Below are positions 14,490 through 20,721 of a stretch of DNA of 64,000 nt, piece by piece; position 1 is the stretch's first letter, and each line of letters opens with the position of its first letter. The stretch is from Gemmatimonadales bacterium. Lineage in GTDB: Bacteria > Gemmatimonadota > Gemmatimonadetes > Gemmatimonadales > GWC2-71-9. The notes below the pieces were generated by a model that was given only the letters and a program-made list of their open reading frames with translations, was not told where the DNA came from and made no database searches. The stretch covers positions 8,331-72,330 of the forward strand of contig DATBSO010000071.1 in assembly GCA_036559745.1 (NCBI GenBank), in the 5' to 3' direction. The translations under genes were made by a program, and so were the position numbers.

Positions 14490-16106
14490 GTGAGCTGGGA
14501 GCCACGATCGTCTTCCGCCGCGCGGTCGCCTGAGGAAACTCCGGCCGATCGCGCGGCGGAGTTATTGTCGAAGGCGATAACCAGCGAGCGTGCCGGCTCC
14601 GTCGAGGATGCGGTCGCGGGATATCGGGCGGCCATCGCGGAGGCGGAGCGCCTCGGCGACCAGCGGACCAACGCCGAGGCGCTGCGGCGACTGGCGGTGC
14701 AGCATCATCACCGTGGGGAGCGGGACGCCGCCCGCGAGCTCTCGCAGCGGAGCTATACGATCGCCACCGATCTCGGCGATGATGTCCTCGCGGGTGAGGC
14801 GCTCAACGTCCTCGCCGGTTTCGCCTTCGAGAGTGGCGCCATGAGCGACGCCCGCACCCGTTATCTCGAGGCGTTGGCTCTCGGCGGGTCCAATCCCCTG
14901 CTCCGCGGGCGCATCGAGCAGAACCTCGGCATCCTCGCCAACATCCAGGGTGACCACGGCGACGCGCTGATTCACTACCGGCGCTCCCTCGCCGCCTTCG
15001 AGAGCTCGGGCGAGGACAAGGGCTGCGCCATCGCCTTTCACAACCTCGGCATGGTGAGCGCCGACCGGCAGCTCTGGGAGGATGCCGACCGGTATTTCCG
15101 CCGGAGTCTGGAGATCACGAGACAGGTCGGTGATGTCCACCTCGAAGGCCTCTGTCTCCTCAACCACGCCGAAGTGCACGTCGCCCGCCAGCGGTTCGAG
15201 GAGGCGCGGGGCAACGCCGAGGCGGCGCTGGCCATCTTCGAGCAGCTGGGAGCCAGGCTCGACAAAGCCGACGTCTACAAGGTGCTCGGTGTGGTATACC
15301 GGGAAACCGGACGGCACGCCCTGGCGGAGTCGCGCCTGCGGGCGGCGATCGACCAGGCGGTGACGACGGGCTCGGTTCTGAGTGAGGCCGAAGCCTCGCG
15401 GGAGCTGGCGCGGCTGTATCAGACGATGGGCAGGAACCAGGAGGCGCTGCGCCTTCTGAGCGCCGCCCACCGGCTCTTCACCCGGCTCGATGCCCGGGTG
15501 GATCTCGTCGATGTGGCGTCGAAGGTCCACCGCCTGGAGGACACCTACCTGGCGGTGGTACGCGAGTGGGGACAATCAATCGAATCGGCGGACAGCTATA
15601 CGTTCGGCCACTGCGAGCGGGTCGCCACCTATGCGATCGCGGTGGCGGAGCAGTTGGGGAGCGACGAGAGCCAGCTCACCGCCATCCGGCTCGGCGCCTA
15701 TCTGCACGACGTCGGCAAGGTCAAGGTTCCGCACGAAATCCTGAACAAGCCGGGGCGACTCACCGATCAGGAGTTCGAGGTCATCAAGCAGCACCCCGTG
15801 TGGGGTATCGAGCTCCTGGCGACGATCGAGTTTCCCTGGGACATCAAACCCATGATCCGGTCCCACCACGAGAAATACGATGGAACCGGGTATCCCGACC
15901 GCATGCGCGGCGACGAGATACCGATCGCGGCTCAGATCGTGTGCATCGCGGACGTCTACGACGCGCTGACCACGACCCGGAGCTATCGCGGGGCGATGTC
16001 GAGGGAGGAGGCGCTCGGAAAAATGGAGGAGTCGCGCCACTGGTGGCGGCCCGACGTGTACGGCGCCTTCAGGCGATCGATGGAAATGGTTCCCCGAGCG
16101 GCGTGA
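14490..16106 (+). CDS. TPR-repeat protein fused to an HD-GYP domain (likely c-di-GMP phosphodiesterase)
   Basis: The GTG start is preceded by AAGGAG (14481-14486). The C-terminal domain contains HCERVA...YLHDVGKVKVP...HHEKYDGTGYPD, the HD and GYP signatures. The N-terminal ~330 aa are TPR-like. Confidence 0.88.
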   Translation: MSWEPRSSSAARSPEETPADRAAELLSKAITSERAGSVEDAVAGYRAAIAEAERLGDQRTNAEALRRLAVQHHHRGERDAARELSQRSYTIATDLGDDVLAGEALNVLAGFAFESGAMSDARTRYLEALALGGSNPLLRGRIEQNLGILANIQGDHGDALIHYRRSLAAFESSGEDKGCAIAFHNLGMVSADRQLWEDADRYFRRSLEITRQVGDVHLEGLCLLNHAEVHVARQRFEEARGNAEAALAIFEQLGARLDKADVYKVLGVVYRETGRHALAESRLRAAIDQAVTTGSVLSEAEASRELARLYQTMGRNQEALRLLSAAHRLFTRLDARVDLVDVASKVHRLEDTYLAVVREWGQSIESADSYTFGHCERVATYAIAVAEQLGSDESQLTAIRLGAYLHDVGKVKVPHEILNKPGRLTDQEFEVIKQHPVWGIELLATIEFPWDIKPMIRSHHEKYDGTGYPDRMRGDEIPIAAQIVCIADVYDALTTTRSYRGAMSREEALGKMEESRHWWRPDVYGAFRRSMEMVPRAA

Positions 16107-17184
16107 AGTGCGCGACGAGGCCGGCATCGTCCTGCGGCTGCCGGTAGACGTAGCGCTCTCCCCGGAAATTCCGCAGTACCACTTCCTCGTCGGTCATGCT
16201 GATGACGTATTCCGGCAGCAGCGGGATCTTGCCGCCGCCCCCGGGGGCGTCGATCACGAAGTACGGATTGGCGAGCCCGCTGGTCCATCCTCGGAGGGCC
16301 TCCATGATCCGTATGCCGGCCTGAACCGTCGTCCGGAAGTGCTCCGCGCCCGCCACCTGGTCGGCCATGTAGATGTAGTAGGGCCGGACCCGCGCCATCA
16401 GCAGGCGCTGCATCAGCTCCTTCATCACCGCTGGGTCGTCGTTCACACCCTTGAGGAGGACGGTCTGGCAGCCGAGCGGGATGCCCGCATCGGCCAGACG
16501 GCCCAGTCCGGCGACCGCGGCGGGCGTGAGCTCATCGGGGTGATTGAAATGGGTGTTGATGAATAGCGGGTGGAACCGCTTCAGGGTCGCGCACAGCTCG
16601 GGTGTGATCCGCTCCGGCAAGTGGCAGGGGATCCGGCTGCCGATCCGGATGATCTGGAGATGCGGGATCGCCCGGAGCCGGGTGAGGATGGCCTCGAGCC
16701 GCCGGTCGTTGAGCAGCAGCGGGTCGCCACCGGACATGATGACGTCCCGGATCTCGGTGTGCTCCTCGAGGTACTGGAAAGCGGACTCGAACTGCGACAT
16801 CGGGATCTTTTCCGGATCGCCCACTTTCCGGCGGCGGGTACAGAACCGGCAATAGGTGGCGCATACCGGGCTCACCAGGAAGAGCGCCCGATCGGGATAG
16901 CGGTGTGTGATGTTGGGGACGGGGCTGTCGGCGTCCTCGTTGAGCGAGTCCACGATCCCGTCCACGACCTCGAGCTCTTCGACGCTCGGCACGTACTGAC
17001 GCCACATGGGGTCGCCGGGGGACTTGATCAGGTCCACCATCGCCGGTGAGATCCGGAACTCGAAATTGTCGGCCGCCAGCCGGAGCCGATCGAGGTCGGG
17101 GAAGTGTTCCGGGCCGAACTTGGCGGCGAGCGCCTCGAGGGACGCGATCGAATTCTTCTTGAGGACTTCCTGCCAGGTCTCCAT
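16069..17184 (-). CDS. KamA-family radical-SAM amino acid 2,3-aminomutase (lysine 2,3-aminomutase-like)
   Basis: CATYCRFCTRRRKVG is the CxxxCxxC cluster in KamA context. SGGDPLL and a PLP-region-like pattern are present. The N-terminus METWQEVLKKNSIASLEAL is typical of KamA. GGGGGAGG SD upstream. Confidence 0.88.
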   Translation of the reverse strand: METWQEVLKKNSIASLEALAAKFGPEHFPDLDRLRLAADNFEFRISPAMVDLIKSPGDPMWRQYVPSVEELEVVDGIVDSLNEDADSPVPNITHRYPDRALFLVSPVCATYCRFCTRRRKVGDPEKIPMSQFESAFQYLEEHTEIRDVIMSGGDPLLLNDRRLEAILTRLRAIPHLQIIRIGSRIPCHLPERITPELCATLKRFHPLFINTHFNHPDELTPAAVAGLGRLADAGIPLGCQTVLLKGVNDDPAVMKELMQRLLMARVRPYYIYMADQVAGAEHFRTTVQAGIRIMEALRGWTSGLANPYFVIDAPGGGGKIPLLPEYVISMTDEEVVLRNFRGERYVYRQPQDDAGLVAHFTPLGEPFPSIA

Positions 17185-17200
17185 GACTGCCGCCTCCCCC

Positions 17201-17701
17201 TCAGCCCGCAGGGGTCGAAAGAGACTTCACGTAGACGACCTGATCGTCACCGTCATCGTAGAAGTTGGGGATGATACTGGTGCTGCGATAGCCCCGGGCC
17301 TCGTAGAACGCCCGGGTCGGCAGGTAATCGGGCCGCCCGGCCGTCTCGACGACGATGAGCCGGGCGACCCCCGCGAGGCGGCGCTCCATTTCCCGAAGCA
17401 GGGCGCTGCCGATGCCGCAGCCATGGACCGCGGGGTCGACCGCCATCCAGTAGAGATCGTAGGTACCGACGGTACAGGGAGTGGGACCCCAGCAGATCCA
17501 GCCGGTGAATTGGCCGTCCAGCTCGGCGGCGAGGGCGGAGTAATCGGGGGAGCCCGAGACGGCCGCGTCGAACACCTCGAGCGCGATGGCCGTCTCGTTC
17601 GCGCGAAAGAGGCCGGCCGCTCTGGTGATTTCCTCGAGACGCGGCCGGTCGGCGGCGCGGAGGCTTCGGAGGGCCGGCGAGGCGGTGACCGCGCCGCTCA
17701 C
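17201..17701 (-). CDS. GNAT-family N-acetyltransferase
   Basis: The acetyl-CoA motif region is VDPAVHGCGIGSALLREMERRL...ARGY. The GTG start at 17701 overlaps the stop of the upstream ATP-grasp gene (GTGA). The longer track ORF would overlap that gene by about 100 nt. Confidence 0.8.
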   Translation of the reverse strand: MSGAVTASPALRSLRAADRPRLEEITRAAGLFRANETAIALEVFDAAVSGSPDYSALAAELDGQFTGWICWGPTPCTVGTYDLYWMAVDPAVHGCGIGSALLREMERRLAGVARLIVVETAGRPDYLPTRAFYEARGYRSTSIIPNFYDDGDDQVVYVKSLSTPAG

Positions 17702-18708
17702 GCGGCGGACACCCCACTGACGAGGGCGGCGGCGGCCGAGCTGCTCTGGGAGCGCATGAGCGCCTCGTCGACGACCTGCATGACCAGCTCGTCGTAGCTC
17801 CACCCGAAGGCCCGCCCCATCCGGGCGAGGCCCGCGTTGCTCGAGAGGTCGGGGCAGGGATTGACCTCGAGGACGTAGGGCTGCCCGTCGTCGTTCACCC
17901 GGAGGTCGACCCGGCCGTACCCTTCGCCGCTCGACACGTGCATCCAGGCATCGCGCGCCACGTCGGTGATCCGCTTGGCCAGGTTCTCGTCGATGGTGGC
18001 GGGACAGATAGGAAGGGTGCCCTCGTCTTCAGGGCTCCCCGGAATCCACTTCGCTGCGTAGCCGACGATCGGCCAGGTCCCCTCGGGCATCCCCTCGAAG
18101 TTGATCTCGGCGATGGGCAGCATCCGCTTGCCGACGAAGCCCACGTTGAACTCCCGGCCAGGCACGTACTCCTGCACGAGCACCTCTTCGAACTGCTCCA
18201 GCATCTGGGCGACCCGGCGCTTGAGGGCCCGCTTGGACGTGCAGACGGCGCCGTTGTCGATGCCCACGCTGGCGTCCTCGGCCGCCGGCTTCACGATGGC
18301 CGGCAGGGGGAACTCCGCGGGGCTCTTGTTGGCCTGCGCCAGGGTGAAGGCGGGGACCGGGAGTCCGGCGGCGGCCAGGAGCGTGTTGGCGACGTGCTTC
18401 CGGTGGGCGATGGTGGTGGCCCAGTGGCGGCACCCGGTGAAGGGAACGCCCGTGAGCTCGAGCGTGCCCACGACGAAGTCCTCGAAGCGGGCGTGCCCGT
18501 TGATCCCCTCGCAGAGATTGAAGACGAGGTCGGCCCGCCGGGCGCGGGAGAGCCAGCGGAACTCGCCAAGGCGGAGCGCGAGCAGCTCCACCTCGTGGCC
18601 CCGGCGCCGGAGAACATCCCGGATCTCGTGGACGTTACCGACGACCGCGGCTACGTCCTGCGCGCTCCACTCGTCGCTGCCAGCATCGTACAAGATCGCC
18701 ACACGCAT
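17698..18708 (-). CDS. ATP-grasp ligase, D-Ala-D-Ala-ligase-like family (copy 2)
   Basis: The pattern is ...FPLPAIVKPAAEDASVGI...VLVQEYVPGREFNVGFVG...YGRVDLRVNDDGQPYVLEVNPCPDLS... The ATG directly follows the TGA of the upstream gene. Confidence 0.8.
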   Translation of the reverse strand: MRVAILYDAGSDEWSAQDVAAVVGNVHEIRDVLRRRGHEVELLALRLGEFRWLSRARRADLVFNLCEGINGHARFEDFVVGTLELTGVPFTGCRHWATTIAHRKHVANTLLAAAGLPVPAFTLAQANKSPAEFPLPAIVKPAAEDASVGIDNGAVCTSKRALKRRVAQMLEQFEEVLVQEYVPGREFNVGFVGKRMLPIAEINFEGMPEGTWPIVGYAAKWIPGSPEDEGTLPICPATIDENLAKRITDVARDAWMHVSSGEGYGRVDLRVNDDGQPYVLEVNPCPDLSSNAGLARMGRAFGWSYDELVMQVVDEALMRSQSSSAAAALVSGVSAA

Positions 18709-19812
18709 TCAGGCTACCTCCGCCAGGAGTGATCGTCCGCTGATCCGGCGCCATGCGATATCGGCGACGGTGCGGATGAGTTCGTCGTAACTGATTCCAG
18801 CGGCGCGAGCAGCCTTTGGAAAACAGGAATTGTCCCGCGGGTCAGGCAAAATGCCCGGCAGCGGGTTCAGTTCGACGACCATCGGGCGATTGGTGGCGTC
18901 ACAACGAATGTCGACGCGGCACCAGTCGCGGCATTCCAGTGCGTGGTAGGCCGCCAATGCGGCGGCGCGAACATCCTCGGCCAGTGCTTCGGGAATTCGG
19001 GCCGGGCACTCGAAAATCTCCAGGGGATGGCGCGGCGAGTCCCACAGCCACTTGGCCTCGTAGCCGTAGATCGGCGGCGCACCCTTGGGTAGTGTATCAA
19101 ATCGCATGCCGACAATGGGCAGGCAATACGCGTCGTCGTCGTTGCCGAGCACCGCCACGGTGAATTCGGGGCCGGGCAAATAGGTCTCGATCAGCACGGG
19201 CTCGGCGTAGGTCGCGAGGAGATTGGAGACCTGACGGACGAGCTGCGTCCTCGTCTTGCAGACGCTGCGCACGCTCACGCCTTTACCGCTTCCCTCGAAG
19301 GCGGGCTTCACGAAAAGCGGAAAGGGAAGCTGGACCGCGCGTGCGTCGTCGGAATGCTTGGCCAGAACGAAGGGGGCAGTGGGCACGCCGTGATAGGCGA
19401 GCACTTCCTTGGCGCGCCGCTTGTCGAGCGCGAGGCCGAGCGTCAGTGGGTCCGAGGCGTGGCACGGGATGCCGAGAAATTCGCAGATGGCCGGTACGTG
19501 GCCCTCGCGGTTCGGGCCGTAAAGTCCCTCAGCGATGTTGAAGACGAAGTCGGGCCGAATGAGTGCGAGGCGCGCGGGAAACGACGTGTTCGCCTCGAGG
19601 CGATAGACCGTGCCGACACTCTCGAGCGCGCGCTCGACCGCGTCGATAGTCGCGGGCTCATCCCATTCAGCATAGAGATCGGGTTGGGAGAGATCGGCGC
19701 GGAGGGACCGACTGGAAGGCTCGTCGGAAGAGGGGGAGTCGGGAGTTGCCCCGGCTGGACTAGCCGGCGCCTCGGGTTTGAGATTGAAGGCGAGTCCGAT
19801 CCGAACTGCCAA
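18709..19812 (-). CDS. ATP-grasp ligase, D-Ala-D-Ala-ligase-like family (copy 1)
   Basis: The pattern is ...FPLFVKPAFEGSGKGV...VLIETYLPGPEFTVAVLG...WCRVDIRCDATNRPMVVELNPLPGILP...GISYDELI. The TTG start at 19812 has GAGGG 5 nt upstream. Confidence 0.8.
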   Translation of the reverse strand: MAVRIGLAFNLKPEAPASPAGATPDSPSSDEPSSRSLRADLSQPDLYAEWDEPATIDAVERALESVGTVYRLEANTSFPARLALIRPDFVFNIAEGLYGPNREGHVPAICEFLGIPCHASDPLTLGLALDKRRAKEVLAYHGVPTAPFVLAKHSDDARAVQLPFPLFVKPAFEGSGKGVSVRSVCKTRTQLVRQVSNLLATYAEPVLIETYLPGPEFTVAVLGNDDDAYCLPIVGMRFDTLPKGAPPIYGYEAKWLWDSPRHPLEIFECPARIPEALAEDVRAAALAAYHALECRDWCRVDIRCDATNRPMVVELNPLPGILPDPRDNSCFPKAARAAGISYDELIRTVADIAWRRISGRSLLAEVA

Positions 19813-19825
19813 AGGCGCCCTCTAC

Positions 19826-19858
19826 AAAAAAGGCCGTCCGCGAAAGACGAGCCGGACG
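19826..19858 (-). terminator. hairpin + U-run downstream of thyX (candidate intrinsic terminator/attenuator)
   Basis: The minus strand reads CGTCCG-gctcgtctttcg-CGGACG followed by GCCTTTTTTG. The stem is 6-7 bp, the loop 12 nt and the T-run six residues. It ends only about 13 nt upstream of the ATP-grasp start codon. Confidence 0.35.
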
Positions 19859-19923
19859 AGTGAGTATTTGGACGAAACTAAAGTAAGAAAAACCGTTCGG
19901 ACGCACAATAGGTTTTTTGAATT

Positions 19924-20721
19924 TCAGACCTTATGAAATTCGACCCGACCCGCCTCACTCCCATCCGCCGCAACGTAAATCGAGAAGTCGCCGAAGAGCG
20001 CGGGCGCCTCCCGTTGAAGCAGACGAAGGCAGACGACCGCCATGCGACGGATCTCGAGCTCGGCGCCTTCTCCGAGGCGAAGCTCGAGCATGGTACGCCA
20101 CGCTCGGACGTTCGCGCTCGCCACGATCTTCACCTCGGTCGCGTTGGGTAGCACGCTTCGTGCCGCTTCGCGCGCCATCTTCCGGCGATGAATGGCATCC
20201 GGCACGCTCGCGTACCGCGTGATCAGCCGCTCGACCGCGGCCACGTAGGCCGCCTGTGCGGCCGTCACCTGCGCGGTCCACTCCTCCTCGAGCCGCTGGT
20301 CGCCGATCACGGCCGGCGGCATCACGAATGCCGCATGCGATTCGTCGACGTAGCGCTGGCTCAGCTGCGACCAGCCCCACCCCGCTCGATGTCGCACCAG
20401 CTCGTGGCTGCACGAGCGGGAGATCCCCTCGATCAGCACGACGTACTGGGCGTGCTCGAAGACCGACCCGTGTCCCTGGCGCAGAATGTTCCGGAGGTAG
20501 TCGGCGGTGGTCCTGCCAGCCGGGTTGTGCTGGCTCATGTAGCAGAGTCGACCCGCGAACTCGGCCAGCCGCTCCCCGTCGGTCGACTCGCCCTTCCAGG
20601 AAACCGGAAGATGCGCCGGCTCGATGAACTGGGGGCGGGCGATGAGGGTGACGCGGGGCTCGCGGATGATCTGTATGGGCTCGAGGGTCATGGCCGAAGG
20701 CTCTCGACTGACGGTTGTCAT
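19924..20721 (-). CDS. thyX: FAD-dependent thymidylate synthase
   Basis: The ThyX signature is ELVRHRAGWGWSQLSQRY (RHR-x7-S-x-x-S-x-RY). ATGA start/stop overlap with the upstream gene. Confidence 0.9.
   Translation of the reverse strand: MTTVSREPSAMTLEPIQIIREPRVTLIARPQFIEPAHLPVSWKGESTDGERLAEFAGRLCYMSQHNPAGRTTADYLRNILRQGHGSVFEHAQYVVLIEGISRSCSHELVRHRAGWGWSQLSQRYVDESHAAFVMPPAVIGDQRLEEEWTAQVTAAQAAYVAAVERLITRYASVPDAIHRRKMAREAARSVLPNATEVKIVASANVRAWRTMLELRLGEGAELEIRRMAVVCLRLLQREAPALFGDFSIYVAADGSEAGRVEFHKV

Follow-up and report, generated by a model that had tools for sequence, protein, structure and literature searches.

A conserved four-gene cassette in Gemmatimonadales linking a KamA-family aminomutase to two Ddl-like ATP-grasp ligases and an acetyltransferase: a candidate pathway for acetylated beta-lysine amides

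Introduction

The uses of beta-lysine known to us are lysine fermentation, synthesis of the AblA/AblB osmolyte, the modification of EF-P and the provision of building blocks for antibiotics. A group of four genes in a 64-kb stretch of DNA from a soil Gemmatimonadales bacterium (contig DATBSO010000071.1, positions 8,331 to 72,330; the whole stretch is called the window here) would add a fifth. In a total of less than 4 kb it encodes two Ddl-like ATP-grasp ligases (AG1 and AG2), a small GNAT N-acetyltransferase and a KamA-family, radical S-adenosylmethionine (SAM), pyridoxal 5'-phosphate (PLP)-dependent lysine 2,3-aminomutase (KamA). An initial annotation of the window had proposed that these genes are a coupled operon which makes an acetylated di- or tripeptide-like compound with a beta-amino acid in it, or else modifies a macromolecule. 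The reading that we favour, and hold with moderate confidence, is that they form a single self-contained biosynthetic cassette for an N-acetylated di- or tri-amide containing beta-lysine. The functional coupling of the four genes is near certain and a small-molecule amide is, on balance, the likelier product, whilst we infer the chemistry of that product and its physiological role.

A number of described systems resemble parts of the cassette. AblA/AblB also has a KamA-family aminomutase encoded with a GNAT, and the lysine-binding residues are kept in the cassette enzyme, but here the aminomutase falls under the AblA cut-off, the GNAT has only 166 amino acids and belongs to the family of PDB 2R7H, and two ATP-grasp ligases are integral to the cassette, being even fused to its other two enzymes; membership of the AblA/AblB system was rejected on the aminomutase score and on the type of acetyltransferase. 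Ngg/AsnO, which makes N-acetylglutaminylglutamine amide, shows how a GNAT and ATP-grasp peptide-bond formation can yield a small acetylated peptide solute, and proteins in which both cassette ligases are fused to the GNAT recall the bifunctional Ngg. The cassette differs in having two ligases of the Ddl branch and a radical-SAM aminomutase that supplies a beta-amino acid, and no AsnO-type amidotransferase was found among the genes conserved with it, so that it was not placed with Ngg/AsnO either. In EpmB/EpmA a beta-lysine of KamA-family origin is attached by a ligase through an amide bond; the cassette KamA, however, has Asp at position 330, as in lysine 2,3-aminomutase (LAM), where EpmB has Glu, its ligases are ATP-grasp enzymes rather than paralogues of lysyl-tRNA synthetase, and there is no efp nearby. 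Membership of the EpmB/EpmA/EF-P system was rejected on the EpmB model score and on finding no EF-P in the window or among the conserved neighbours. The lysine fermentation cluster (kamA-kamDE-kdd-kce-kal) combines kamA with a 5,6-aminomutase that depends on B12 and with genes for the downstream catabolism, whereas no 5,6-aminomutase or lysine-catabolic genes were present in the gene tables of the contexts examined or in the window. The claim that the gene set fits none of the described KamA roles stands for AblA/AblB, EpmB/EpmA and lysine fermentation, and it extends to Ngg/AsnO and, as described below, to the cell-wall Ddl enzymes.

By analogy, the cassette may work like an extension of AblA/AblB to which the GNAT-plus-ATP-grasp logic of Ngg has been added. 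The full-text literature searched assigns no product to the cluster, as had been supposed at the outset, although Iyer et al. 2009 could still list the neighbourhood; for the enzyme families themselves only papers on AblA/AblB or unrelated reviews were matched. What would be new here is a beta-lysine small-molecule pathway of undescribed architecture and product.

Gene fusions and conservation of the cassette

Natural fusions join every neighbouring pair of the enzymes, in the form of KamA-AG1, AG1-AG2 and AG1-AG2-GNAT proteins. Many relatives of AG1 (dozens), with lengths of 650-730 amino acids, are made up of two halves, the first AG1-like and the second AG2-like. KamA-AG1 fusions are represented by P0267, P0300, P0312, P0492, P0496, P0497, P0505, P0509 and P0514, the clusters of P0505 and P0509 having 36 and 22 member sequences respectively, and the reverse order, AG1-KamA, is found in P0326. 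Triple AG1-AG2-GNAT fusions (P0455 and P0474) were recovered in a word-index search with one fused ligase as the query, the matches of which were labelled Gammaproteobacteria, Spirochaetota, Planctomycetales, Omnitrophica and Deltaproteobacteria, and a cluster look-up gave the label Myxococcota for the fused ligase P0258. Since fusions of each neighbouring pair have arisen in independent lineages they are strong evidence for a single pathway, and they suggest that its order is KamA, AG1, AG2 and GNAT, an unusually clear and testable pathway order.

It could be argued that an osmolyte pair of the AblA/AblB type happens to lie beside spare cell-wall D-Ala-D-Ala ligases, given that KamA scores best with the AblA model and that the source databases annotate the ligases as D-alanine--D-alanine ligase. 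Such an incidental juxtaposition is contradicted by the covalent KamA-AG1 and ligase-GNAT fusions, which occur in many independent lineages; the thresholds of the AblA, AblB and Ddl models are all missed, and the ligases have Trp in place of Tyr216 and other substrate residues unlike those of Ddl. The chance of this explanation being correct is put at next to nothing.

The conservation of the gene order was assessed in a scan of one genome per species (GTDB), queried with an alignment of eight AG1 relatives. There were at least 600 pattern matches, at least 596 of which encode a relative of AG1. The best 80 loci were fetched and 71 of these, which had enough downstream DNA, were informative. 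AG1 and AG2 were adjacent in all 71 and the order AG1-AG2-GNAT-KamA was complete in 55; the recurrence of the same genes in the same order shows that the arrangement is not due to chance. At L014, AG2 and GNAT lie within a single open reading frame (ORF). The loci were mostly from Gemmatimonadota, with others from Ignavibacteriota (L074, L075 and L081), Bacteroidota (L082) and Rokubacteria (L078 and L079). An all-against-all comparison of the flanking ORFs revealed that these four families are the only ones common to the Gemmatimonadota loci and those of the other three groups, and that the remaining synteny, with an FAD oxidase and thymidylate synthase, is restricted to Gemmatimonadota. Within that phylum the cassette has a fixed housekeeping neighbourhood and the identity of its proteins declines smoothly from 90% to 50%.

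Ten neighbourhoods of distant relatives, from outside the genome scan, all show KamA beside fused or split ligases, followed by the GNAT, although the order is KamA-first, unlike that in the window; the taxon labels, where given, were Desulfoferrobacter, Gammaproteobacteria, Spirochaetes, Omnitrophica and Planctomycetales. The enzyme set is thus found in at least ten bacterial phyla, these being Gemmatimonadota and at least nine others; the phyla and groups concerned are Ignavibacteriota, Bacteroidota, Rokubacteria, Desulfobacterota, Gammaproteobacteria, Spirochaetota, Omnitrophota and Planctomycetales, with Myxococcota added by the label of a fused ligase. There were 904 relatives of AG1 at E <= 1e-30 among 1.84 billion representatives of 50%-identity clusters. 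No plasmid match was obtained for the fused ligase with tblastn, and carriers of the cassette come from soil, groundwater, sediment and freshwater alike. The cassette is not rare, and it is prominent in Gemmatimonadales. The view that the four genes form a coupled operon, which had been advanced from the window only, is upheld by their conservation in Gemmatimonadota and beyond.

The aminomutase

KamA matches PF12544 and PF04055 in Pfam and, among the curated models, passes only the general KamA-family model TIGR00238 (277 bits, cut-off 199). The best of the specific models is that of AblA, TIGR03820, yet the score is below its cut-off (429.6 against 525.4 bits), as are the scores with the glutamate-enzyme model (379 bits, cut-off 650), the arginine-enzyme model (305 bits, cut-off 600) and the EpmB model TIGR03821 (226 bits, cut-off 369.3), so that no grouping with EpmB is seen. 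Aligned to LAM from Clostridium subterminale (PDB 2A5H, E 1.6e-107), KamA keeps C125, C129 and C132 of the CxxxCxxC motif, R134, D293, D330 and the PLP lysine K337. It also carries CATYCRFCTRRR, and its original description as a KamA-family radical-SAM 2,3-aminomutase is borne out by the family model, the motif and the PLP lysine.

An important consideration is which amino acid the enzyme rearranges. We take D293 and D330 of LAM to be the residues that bind the epsilon-ammonium group of the lysine side chain, and Ruzicka and Frey are said to have reported Lys and Asn at positions 293 and 330 of glutamate 2,3-aminomutase. Both aspartates are kept in 14 of the 15 other cluster-linked KamA copies aligned, which include copies from other phyla and from fusions, the exception being P0326 with Gln at 293. 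K337 is likewise retained in nearly all the linked copies that were checked, though in distant KamA paralogues the alignment places the PLP lysine one position away. As D293 and D330 are retained, and with the AblA model scoring best of the specific ones, beta-lysine rather than beta-glutamate is the likely product of KamA, which is also the substance that had been thought most probable in the initial annotation. At three loci, L006 (12700-14091), L012 (12631-13968) and L013, KamA has been replaced in place by a distant KamA-family paralogue of 446-464 amino acids (CPQYCGHCTRMD) that lies under every curated cut-off, that of the general family model included, while the remaining three proteins of these close relatives share about 85% identity with their counterparts in the window. 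This displacement of KamA by a paralogue indicates that the cassette needs an aminomutase.

The two ligases

Both ligases match PF07478 (AG1 at E 1e-33, AG2 at E 6e-26). They are paralogues with 36% mutual identity and are 24-34% identical to DdlB of Escherichia coli. With the most permissive of the Ddl models (NF002378) AG1 reaches 172.9 bits and AG2 140.3 bits, short of the cut-off of 243, and both are still further under the cut-offs of all the other Ddl and Van models. The residues equivalent to DdlB K97, K144, E187, K215, R255, D257, E270 and N272, which bind ATP and Mg or supply the catalytic Lys and Arg, do not vary in AG1 or AG2 or among the orthologues of either. With the full catalytic set present in each, AG1 and AG2 should both be catalytically competent and would form two ATP-dependent amide bonds.

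The similarity to DdlA, DdlB and VanA thus lies in the fold and in the complete catalytic set, and the only solved relatives of AG1 and AG2, and so the nearest structures, are Ddl and VanA-type small-molecule ligases. Besides the low identity, the cassette enzymes differ from these in having Trp for DdlB Tyr216 and a longer omega loop in both. In DdlB, Ser150 and Ser281 contact the amino-acid substrates. AG1 keeps both of these serines and has Cys at position 282, where DdlB has Leu, whereas AG2 has lost both serines, with Ala at 150 and 281, and has Gly at 282. Around the ligases there is no cell-division (mur/fts) gene context. The candidate identification as cell-wall Ddl was rejected on the scores and on the substrate site (Tyr216, Ser150, Ser281 and Leu282), whilst the earlier description of the two proteins as Ddl-like ATP-grasp ligases is in agreement with the PF07478 matches and the catalytic residues. 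Ddl is a homodimer and fusions of AG1 to AG2 are common, from which a heterodimer of AG1 and AG2 is a reasonable inference.

AG1 also contains, at residues ~12-45 (19680-19780), a low-complexity insertion rich in Pro, Ser and Ala, situated between the first strand and the conserved AEWD motif. Its length and sequence vary among the orthologues and it is absent from AG2 and DdlB.

The acetyltransferase and an associated deacetylase domain

The GNAT matches PF13508 and PF00583. At E <= 0.01 it has four NCBIfam matches (RimI, PRK03624 and two AAC(6') models), none of which reaches its cut-off, the best being RimI (41 bits, cut-off 86); the AblB model TIGR03827 is not among these four, and from its sequence relationships the protein is not AblB. 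With this the Pfam and NCBIfam profile matches agree with the family assignments first made for all the proteins of the cassette. The nearest solved relative is PDB 2R7H (E 2.7e-27), and the cassette GNAT belongs to the same subfamily. This structural-genomics entry is named 'putative D-alanine N-acetyltransferase of GNAT family', which appears to be an annotation guess, the literature searched containing no paper on the entry and no substrate assigned to it.

In several lineages the GNAT is accompanied by a deacetylase. It is fused to a Hist_deacetyl domain at L085 (11587-13872), L088 (10195-12447) and L212 (4984-7251), and at L214 (5519-7799) a deacetylase protein with a weak GNAT match lies beside a separate GNAT; the pairing is seen in Gammaproteobacteria, Omnitrophota, Planctomycetales and one further lineage. 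The C-terminal GNAT of the deacetylase fusions is close to 2R7H (E 1.2e-37). The best solved relatives of the deacetylase domain are the acetylpolyamine amidohydrolases 3MEN, 9GKZ, 6PHR and 3Q9B (E 1e-62 to 1e-66), compared with about 1e-33 for entries of the HDAH/HDAC catalytic domain, although tandem-domain HDAC6 entries reach 1e-57. That the domain is nearest to the acetylpolyamine amidohydrolases points to a small alkylamine as the probable substrate, for example the amine on the side chain of beta-lysine, and to an acetylation that can be reversed.

These relationships bear on the question of whether the ligases might instead attach beta-lysine to a macromolecule, either a protein, in the manner of EF-P or of RimK-type tailing, or an envelope polymer, with the GNAT acting on the same target. 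EpmA/EpmB provide a precedent for beta-lysine on a protein, the weak best match of the GNAT is to RimI, and there are faint matches to the TTL family on the AG2 domain. Against this, neither EF-P nor EpmA nor a gene for a candidate target lies beside the cassette in the window or in any of about 90 loci, the ligases are not of the RimK, TTL or LysX branch but of that of Ddl, in which the characterised enzymes act on free small molecules, and the fused deacetylase is of the acetylpolyamine type. No homologue of EF-P or of a genuine Ddl occurs anywhere in the 64-kb window, and the earlier statement that neither EpmA nor EF-P, nor a nonribosomal peptide synthetase or precursor ORF, is adjacent holds for the window. 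A macromolecular target is accordingly thought quite unlikely.

Proposed pathway and product

In the pathway that we favour, the small-molecule cassette, KamA would turn L-lysine into beta-lysine by radical-SAM/PLP chemistry, the family being established and the substrate being judged from the residues. AG1 and AG2, probably as a heterodimer mimicking the Ddl homodimer, would then form one amide bond each through an acyl-phosphate intermediate, their substrates being presumed: AG1 would receive beta-lysine directly from the aminomutase and couple it to a partner, and AG2 would extend the product of AG1 with common amino acids or further beta-lysine. No second building-block gene is conserved with the cassette, and therefore the partners would be common metabolites or beta-lysine itself. 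The GNAT would finally acetylate a free amine, the likeliest being the alkylamine at the end of the beta-lysine side chain, the position acetylated in N-epsilon-acetyl-beta-lysine. Where lineages have the GNAT fused to a domain resembling acetylpolyamine amidohydrolases, this acetyl group could be removed again. The product would be a small cytoplasmic molecule resembling a compatible solute or a polyamine. Small ORFs lie beside the cassette in several loci, but they are mutually unrelated, making a precursor peptide unlikely. The acetylated beta-amino-acid di- or tripeptide-like compound envisaged in the initial annotation has thus gained from the gene coupling, the lysine-type residues and the fusions, with the identity of the product itself staying at the level of prediction.

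The paralogy of the ligases, together with the fact that no second building-block gene is conserved with them, would also suit an oligomer or polymer of beta-lysine similar to cyanophycin, in which one ligase primes and the other elongates and which would serve as a nitrogen reserve with its amines masked by acetylation and unmasked by the deacetylase. Sigma-54 enhancer-binding proteins, which are typical of nitrogen-controlled genes, adjoin the cassette at L086 and L213, and domains for reversible acetylation are present. However, we know of no polymerase in the Ddl branch, neither a dedicated depolymerase nor a granule protein is encoded nearby, and the sigma-54 link is confined to two loci. 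A polymer is, on this evidence, an improbable product.

A number of observations weigh against the small-molecule cassette that we favour. An adjacent KamA is absent from 8 of the 71 informative loci, and in another count an adjacent GNAT is absent from 8 of the 71; in such loci either the genes lie elsewhere in the genome or the ligase pair works alone. The habitats of the carriers do not tie the cassette to salt or drought, and the 5' leader of the operon, described below, has neither a recognisable ligand-binding domain nor an Rfam match. In addition, a divergently transcribed major facilitator superfamily (MFS) transporter adjoins the cassette in two gammaproteobacterial loci (L084 and L088) and would suit an exported product.

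The transporter raises the question of whether the cassette makes an exported bioactive beta-lysine peptide, an antibiotic or a signal, against which the GNAT protects the producer and which the deacetylase activates, as with streptothricin-type compounds. There is precedent in that several antibiotics contain beta-lysine as a building block and streptothricin is inactivated by GNATs acting on its beta-lysine amine, and acetyltransferase and deacetylase domains are paired at L085, L088, L212 and L214. Against it, the cassette is inherited vertically within Gemmatimonadota, where its housekeeping surroundings, with FAD oxidase and thymidylate synthase, are fixed. Across phyla neither a transporter nor a tailoring enzyme nor a regulator accompanies it as a conserved neighbour, and an antibiotic pathway of four enzymes would be very small. 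We regard an exported peptide as unlikely. For the small-molecule amide the candidate roles are those of a compatible solute, a polyamine-like molecule, a nitrogen reserve and an exported compound; the weak hints diverge, MFS transporters, sigma-54 activators and betaine-type catabolic genes each lying near the cassette in two loci. Should the product serve as a stress solute or stand in for polyamines, the cassette would bear on the survival of drying by soil bacteria. Gemmatimonadales are an abundant soil group, almost uncultured, whose physiology is poorly known, and the source organism of the window is itself known from metagenomes alone.

Organisation of the operon and its 5' leader

The features of the operon in the window are given in Table 1. 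An ORF check confirmed the four minus-strand genes at every position first proposed, and the tight packing that had been described is present in the sequence. The TTG start of AG1 is kept in close relatives in the alignment; the junction of AG1 and AG2 reads gccTGAATGcgt, the TGA stop of the former abutting the ATG of the latter; the GTG start of the GNAT lies within gcGTGAgc in a 4-nt overlap with the stop of AG2 that is also present in relatives; and the spacer of 16 nt between GNAT and KamA contains GGGGGAGG. An alternative GNAT start at 17803, taken from a mechanical ORF list, was rejected as it falls inside AG2. The G+C content of the window is about 67% and the closest relatives of its proteins all carry the Gemmatimonadales label.

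Table 1. Cassette genes, upstream elements and immediate neighbours, numbered from the first letter of the window
Feature	Position	Strand	Remarks
AG1, Ddl-like ATP-grasp ligase 1	18709..19812	-	367 aa, TTG start
AG2, ATP-grasp ligase 2	17698..18708	-	336 aa, ATG start
GNAT N-acetyltransferase, small	17201..17701	-	166 aa, GTG start
KamA-family radical-SAM, PLP-dependent lysine 2,3-aminomutase	16069..17184	-	371 aa
Promoter-like motif TTGTGC-N17-TACTTT	19880..19908	-	within longer block CTATTGTG-N13-TTTCTTACTTT
5' leader	19813..19879	-	GC hairpin 19835-19858, U6 tract 19826-19831, Shine-Dalgarno GAGGG
TPR and HD-domain (PF13487 HD_5) gene	14490..16106	+	convergent; 3' end overlaps KamA 3' end by 38 nt (16069-16106)
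ThyX (PF02511)	19924..20721	-	slot upstream of cassette

A promoter-like motif lies upstream of AG1, within a block that in consensus form is written CTATTGTG-N13-TTTCTTAnYTT and that occurs once in the 64-kb window. The motif is found at the same distance upstream of AG1 in about 32 Gemmatimonadales genome loci. A scan of metagenomes showed that every high-GC match is upstream of this operon, the rest being chance matches in AT-rich DNA, and no wider regulon sharing the motif was found in that scan. Its function as a promoter is deduced from the spacing of the hexamers only and is thus putative.

Conservation is higher in the 110 nt upstream of AG1 than in the sequence beyond them. The hairpin and U tract of the leader were detected by a terminator scan and form a near-invariant block in the alignment of AG1-upstream sequences, and the Shine-Dalgarno sequence immediately precedes the TTG start. 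In an alternative structure the U tract can pair with the Shine-Dalgarno sequence (19817-19834), both pairings appearing in the folds, and RNAalifold applied to 28 leaders recovered the two hairpins, the GC stem containing compensatory changes. There is a second, longer class of leader, in which an outer helix encloses the hairpin, in the clade of genome loci in which KamA is not adjacent, as well as in related contigs from metagenomes. For this longer class compensatory changes are found in 5 of 15 pairs, and 88.8% of cells are paired compared with 30-48% when the partners are slid. The leader loci listed are L021, L023, L025, L026, L028 and L038 and, from metagenomes, L098, L099, L118, L121, L122, L144, L166, L193 and L207. 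Rfam 15 gave no match at the gathering score in the whole window and none at E <= 1 in 19700-20000. From its predicted folds the leader resembles an attenuator or an element of translational control and is a candidate new cis-regulatory RNA, and the possession of its own promoter-like motif and a structured leader suggests conditional expression of the operon in Gemmatimonadales. It is tempting to see in all this a new and widespread class of metabolites, in which acetylated amides of beta-lysine are made by heterodimeric Ddl-like ligases and have their charge switched by acetyltransferase and deacetylase, with a leader RNA that senses substrate or product in Gemmatimonadales. We offer this wider view as a tentative one and would not expect all of it to hold.

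Neighbouring genes and other observations

The genes flanking the cassette in the window encode ThyX, an FAD-linked oxidase and the TPR-HD protein. No terminator-like site was found at the KamA/TPR-HD junction (16069-16106). A PF03692 domain is fused to a ligase in P0501, and at L214 a CxxCxxCC protein (PF03692) is encoded between KamA and the ligases. Sigma-54 activators are situated just upstream of the cassette at L086 (5284-6702) and L213 (2892-4349), both on Desulfobacterota-like contigs, that of L213 adjoining a large hybrid histidine kinase. In the gammaproteobacterial loci L084 (11385-15733) and L088 (12610-17208) a second gene set follows immediately downstream on the opposite strand and comprises an AstE/AspA-like hydrolase, a RimK-like ATP-grasp protein, a seven-transmembrane inactive transglutaminase and a RimB-like retropepsin; either it is linked to the cassette or it reflects the shared ancestry of the two genomes. 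Betaine-type catabolic genes are found near L085 and L086.

Metatranscriptome contigs from root or rhizosphere RNA (X29, X31 and X26) contain short fragments that are mostly 88-95% identical and fall mostly on KamA (16180-16890). At most these indicate that homologues of the cassette are transcribed in such samples, as DNA carry-over is possible. The slot that ThyX fills just upstream of the cassette in the window is taken by homologues of it in the Gemmatimonadota loci that were sampled (L005, L012, L023, L042, L061 and L066), whilst at L001 (5928-7225), L002 (4802-6081) and L003 the slot holds ThyA and DHFR, which is a non-homologous replacement of thymidylate synthesis.

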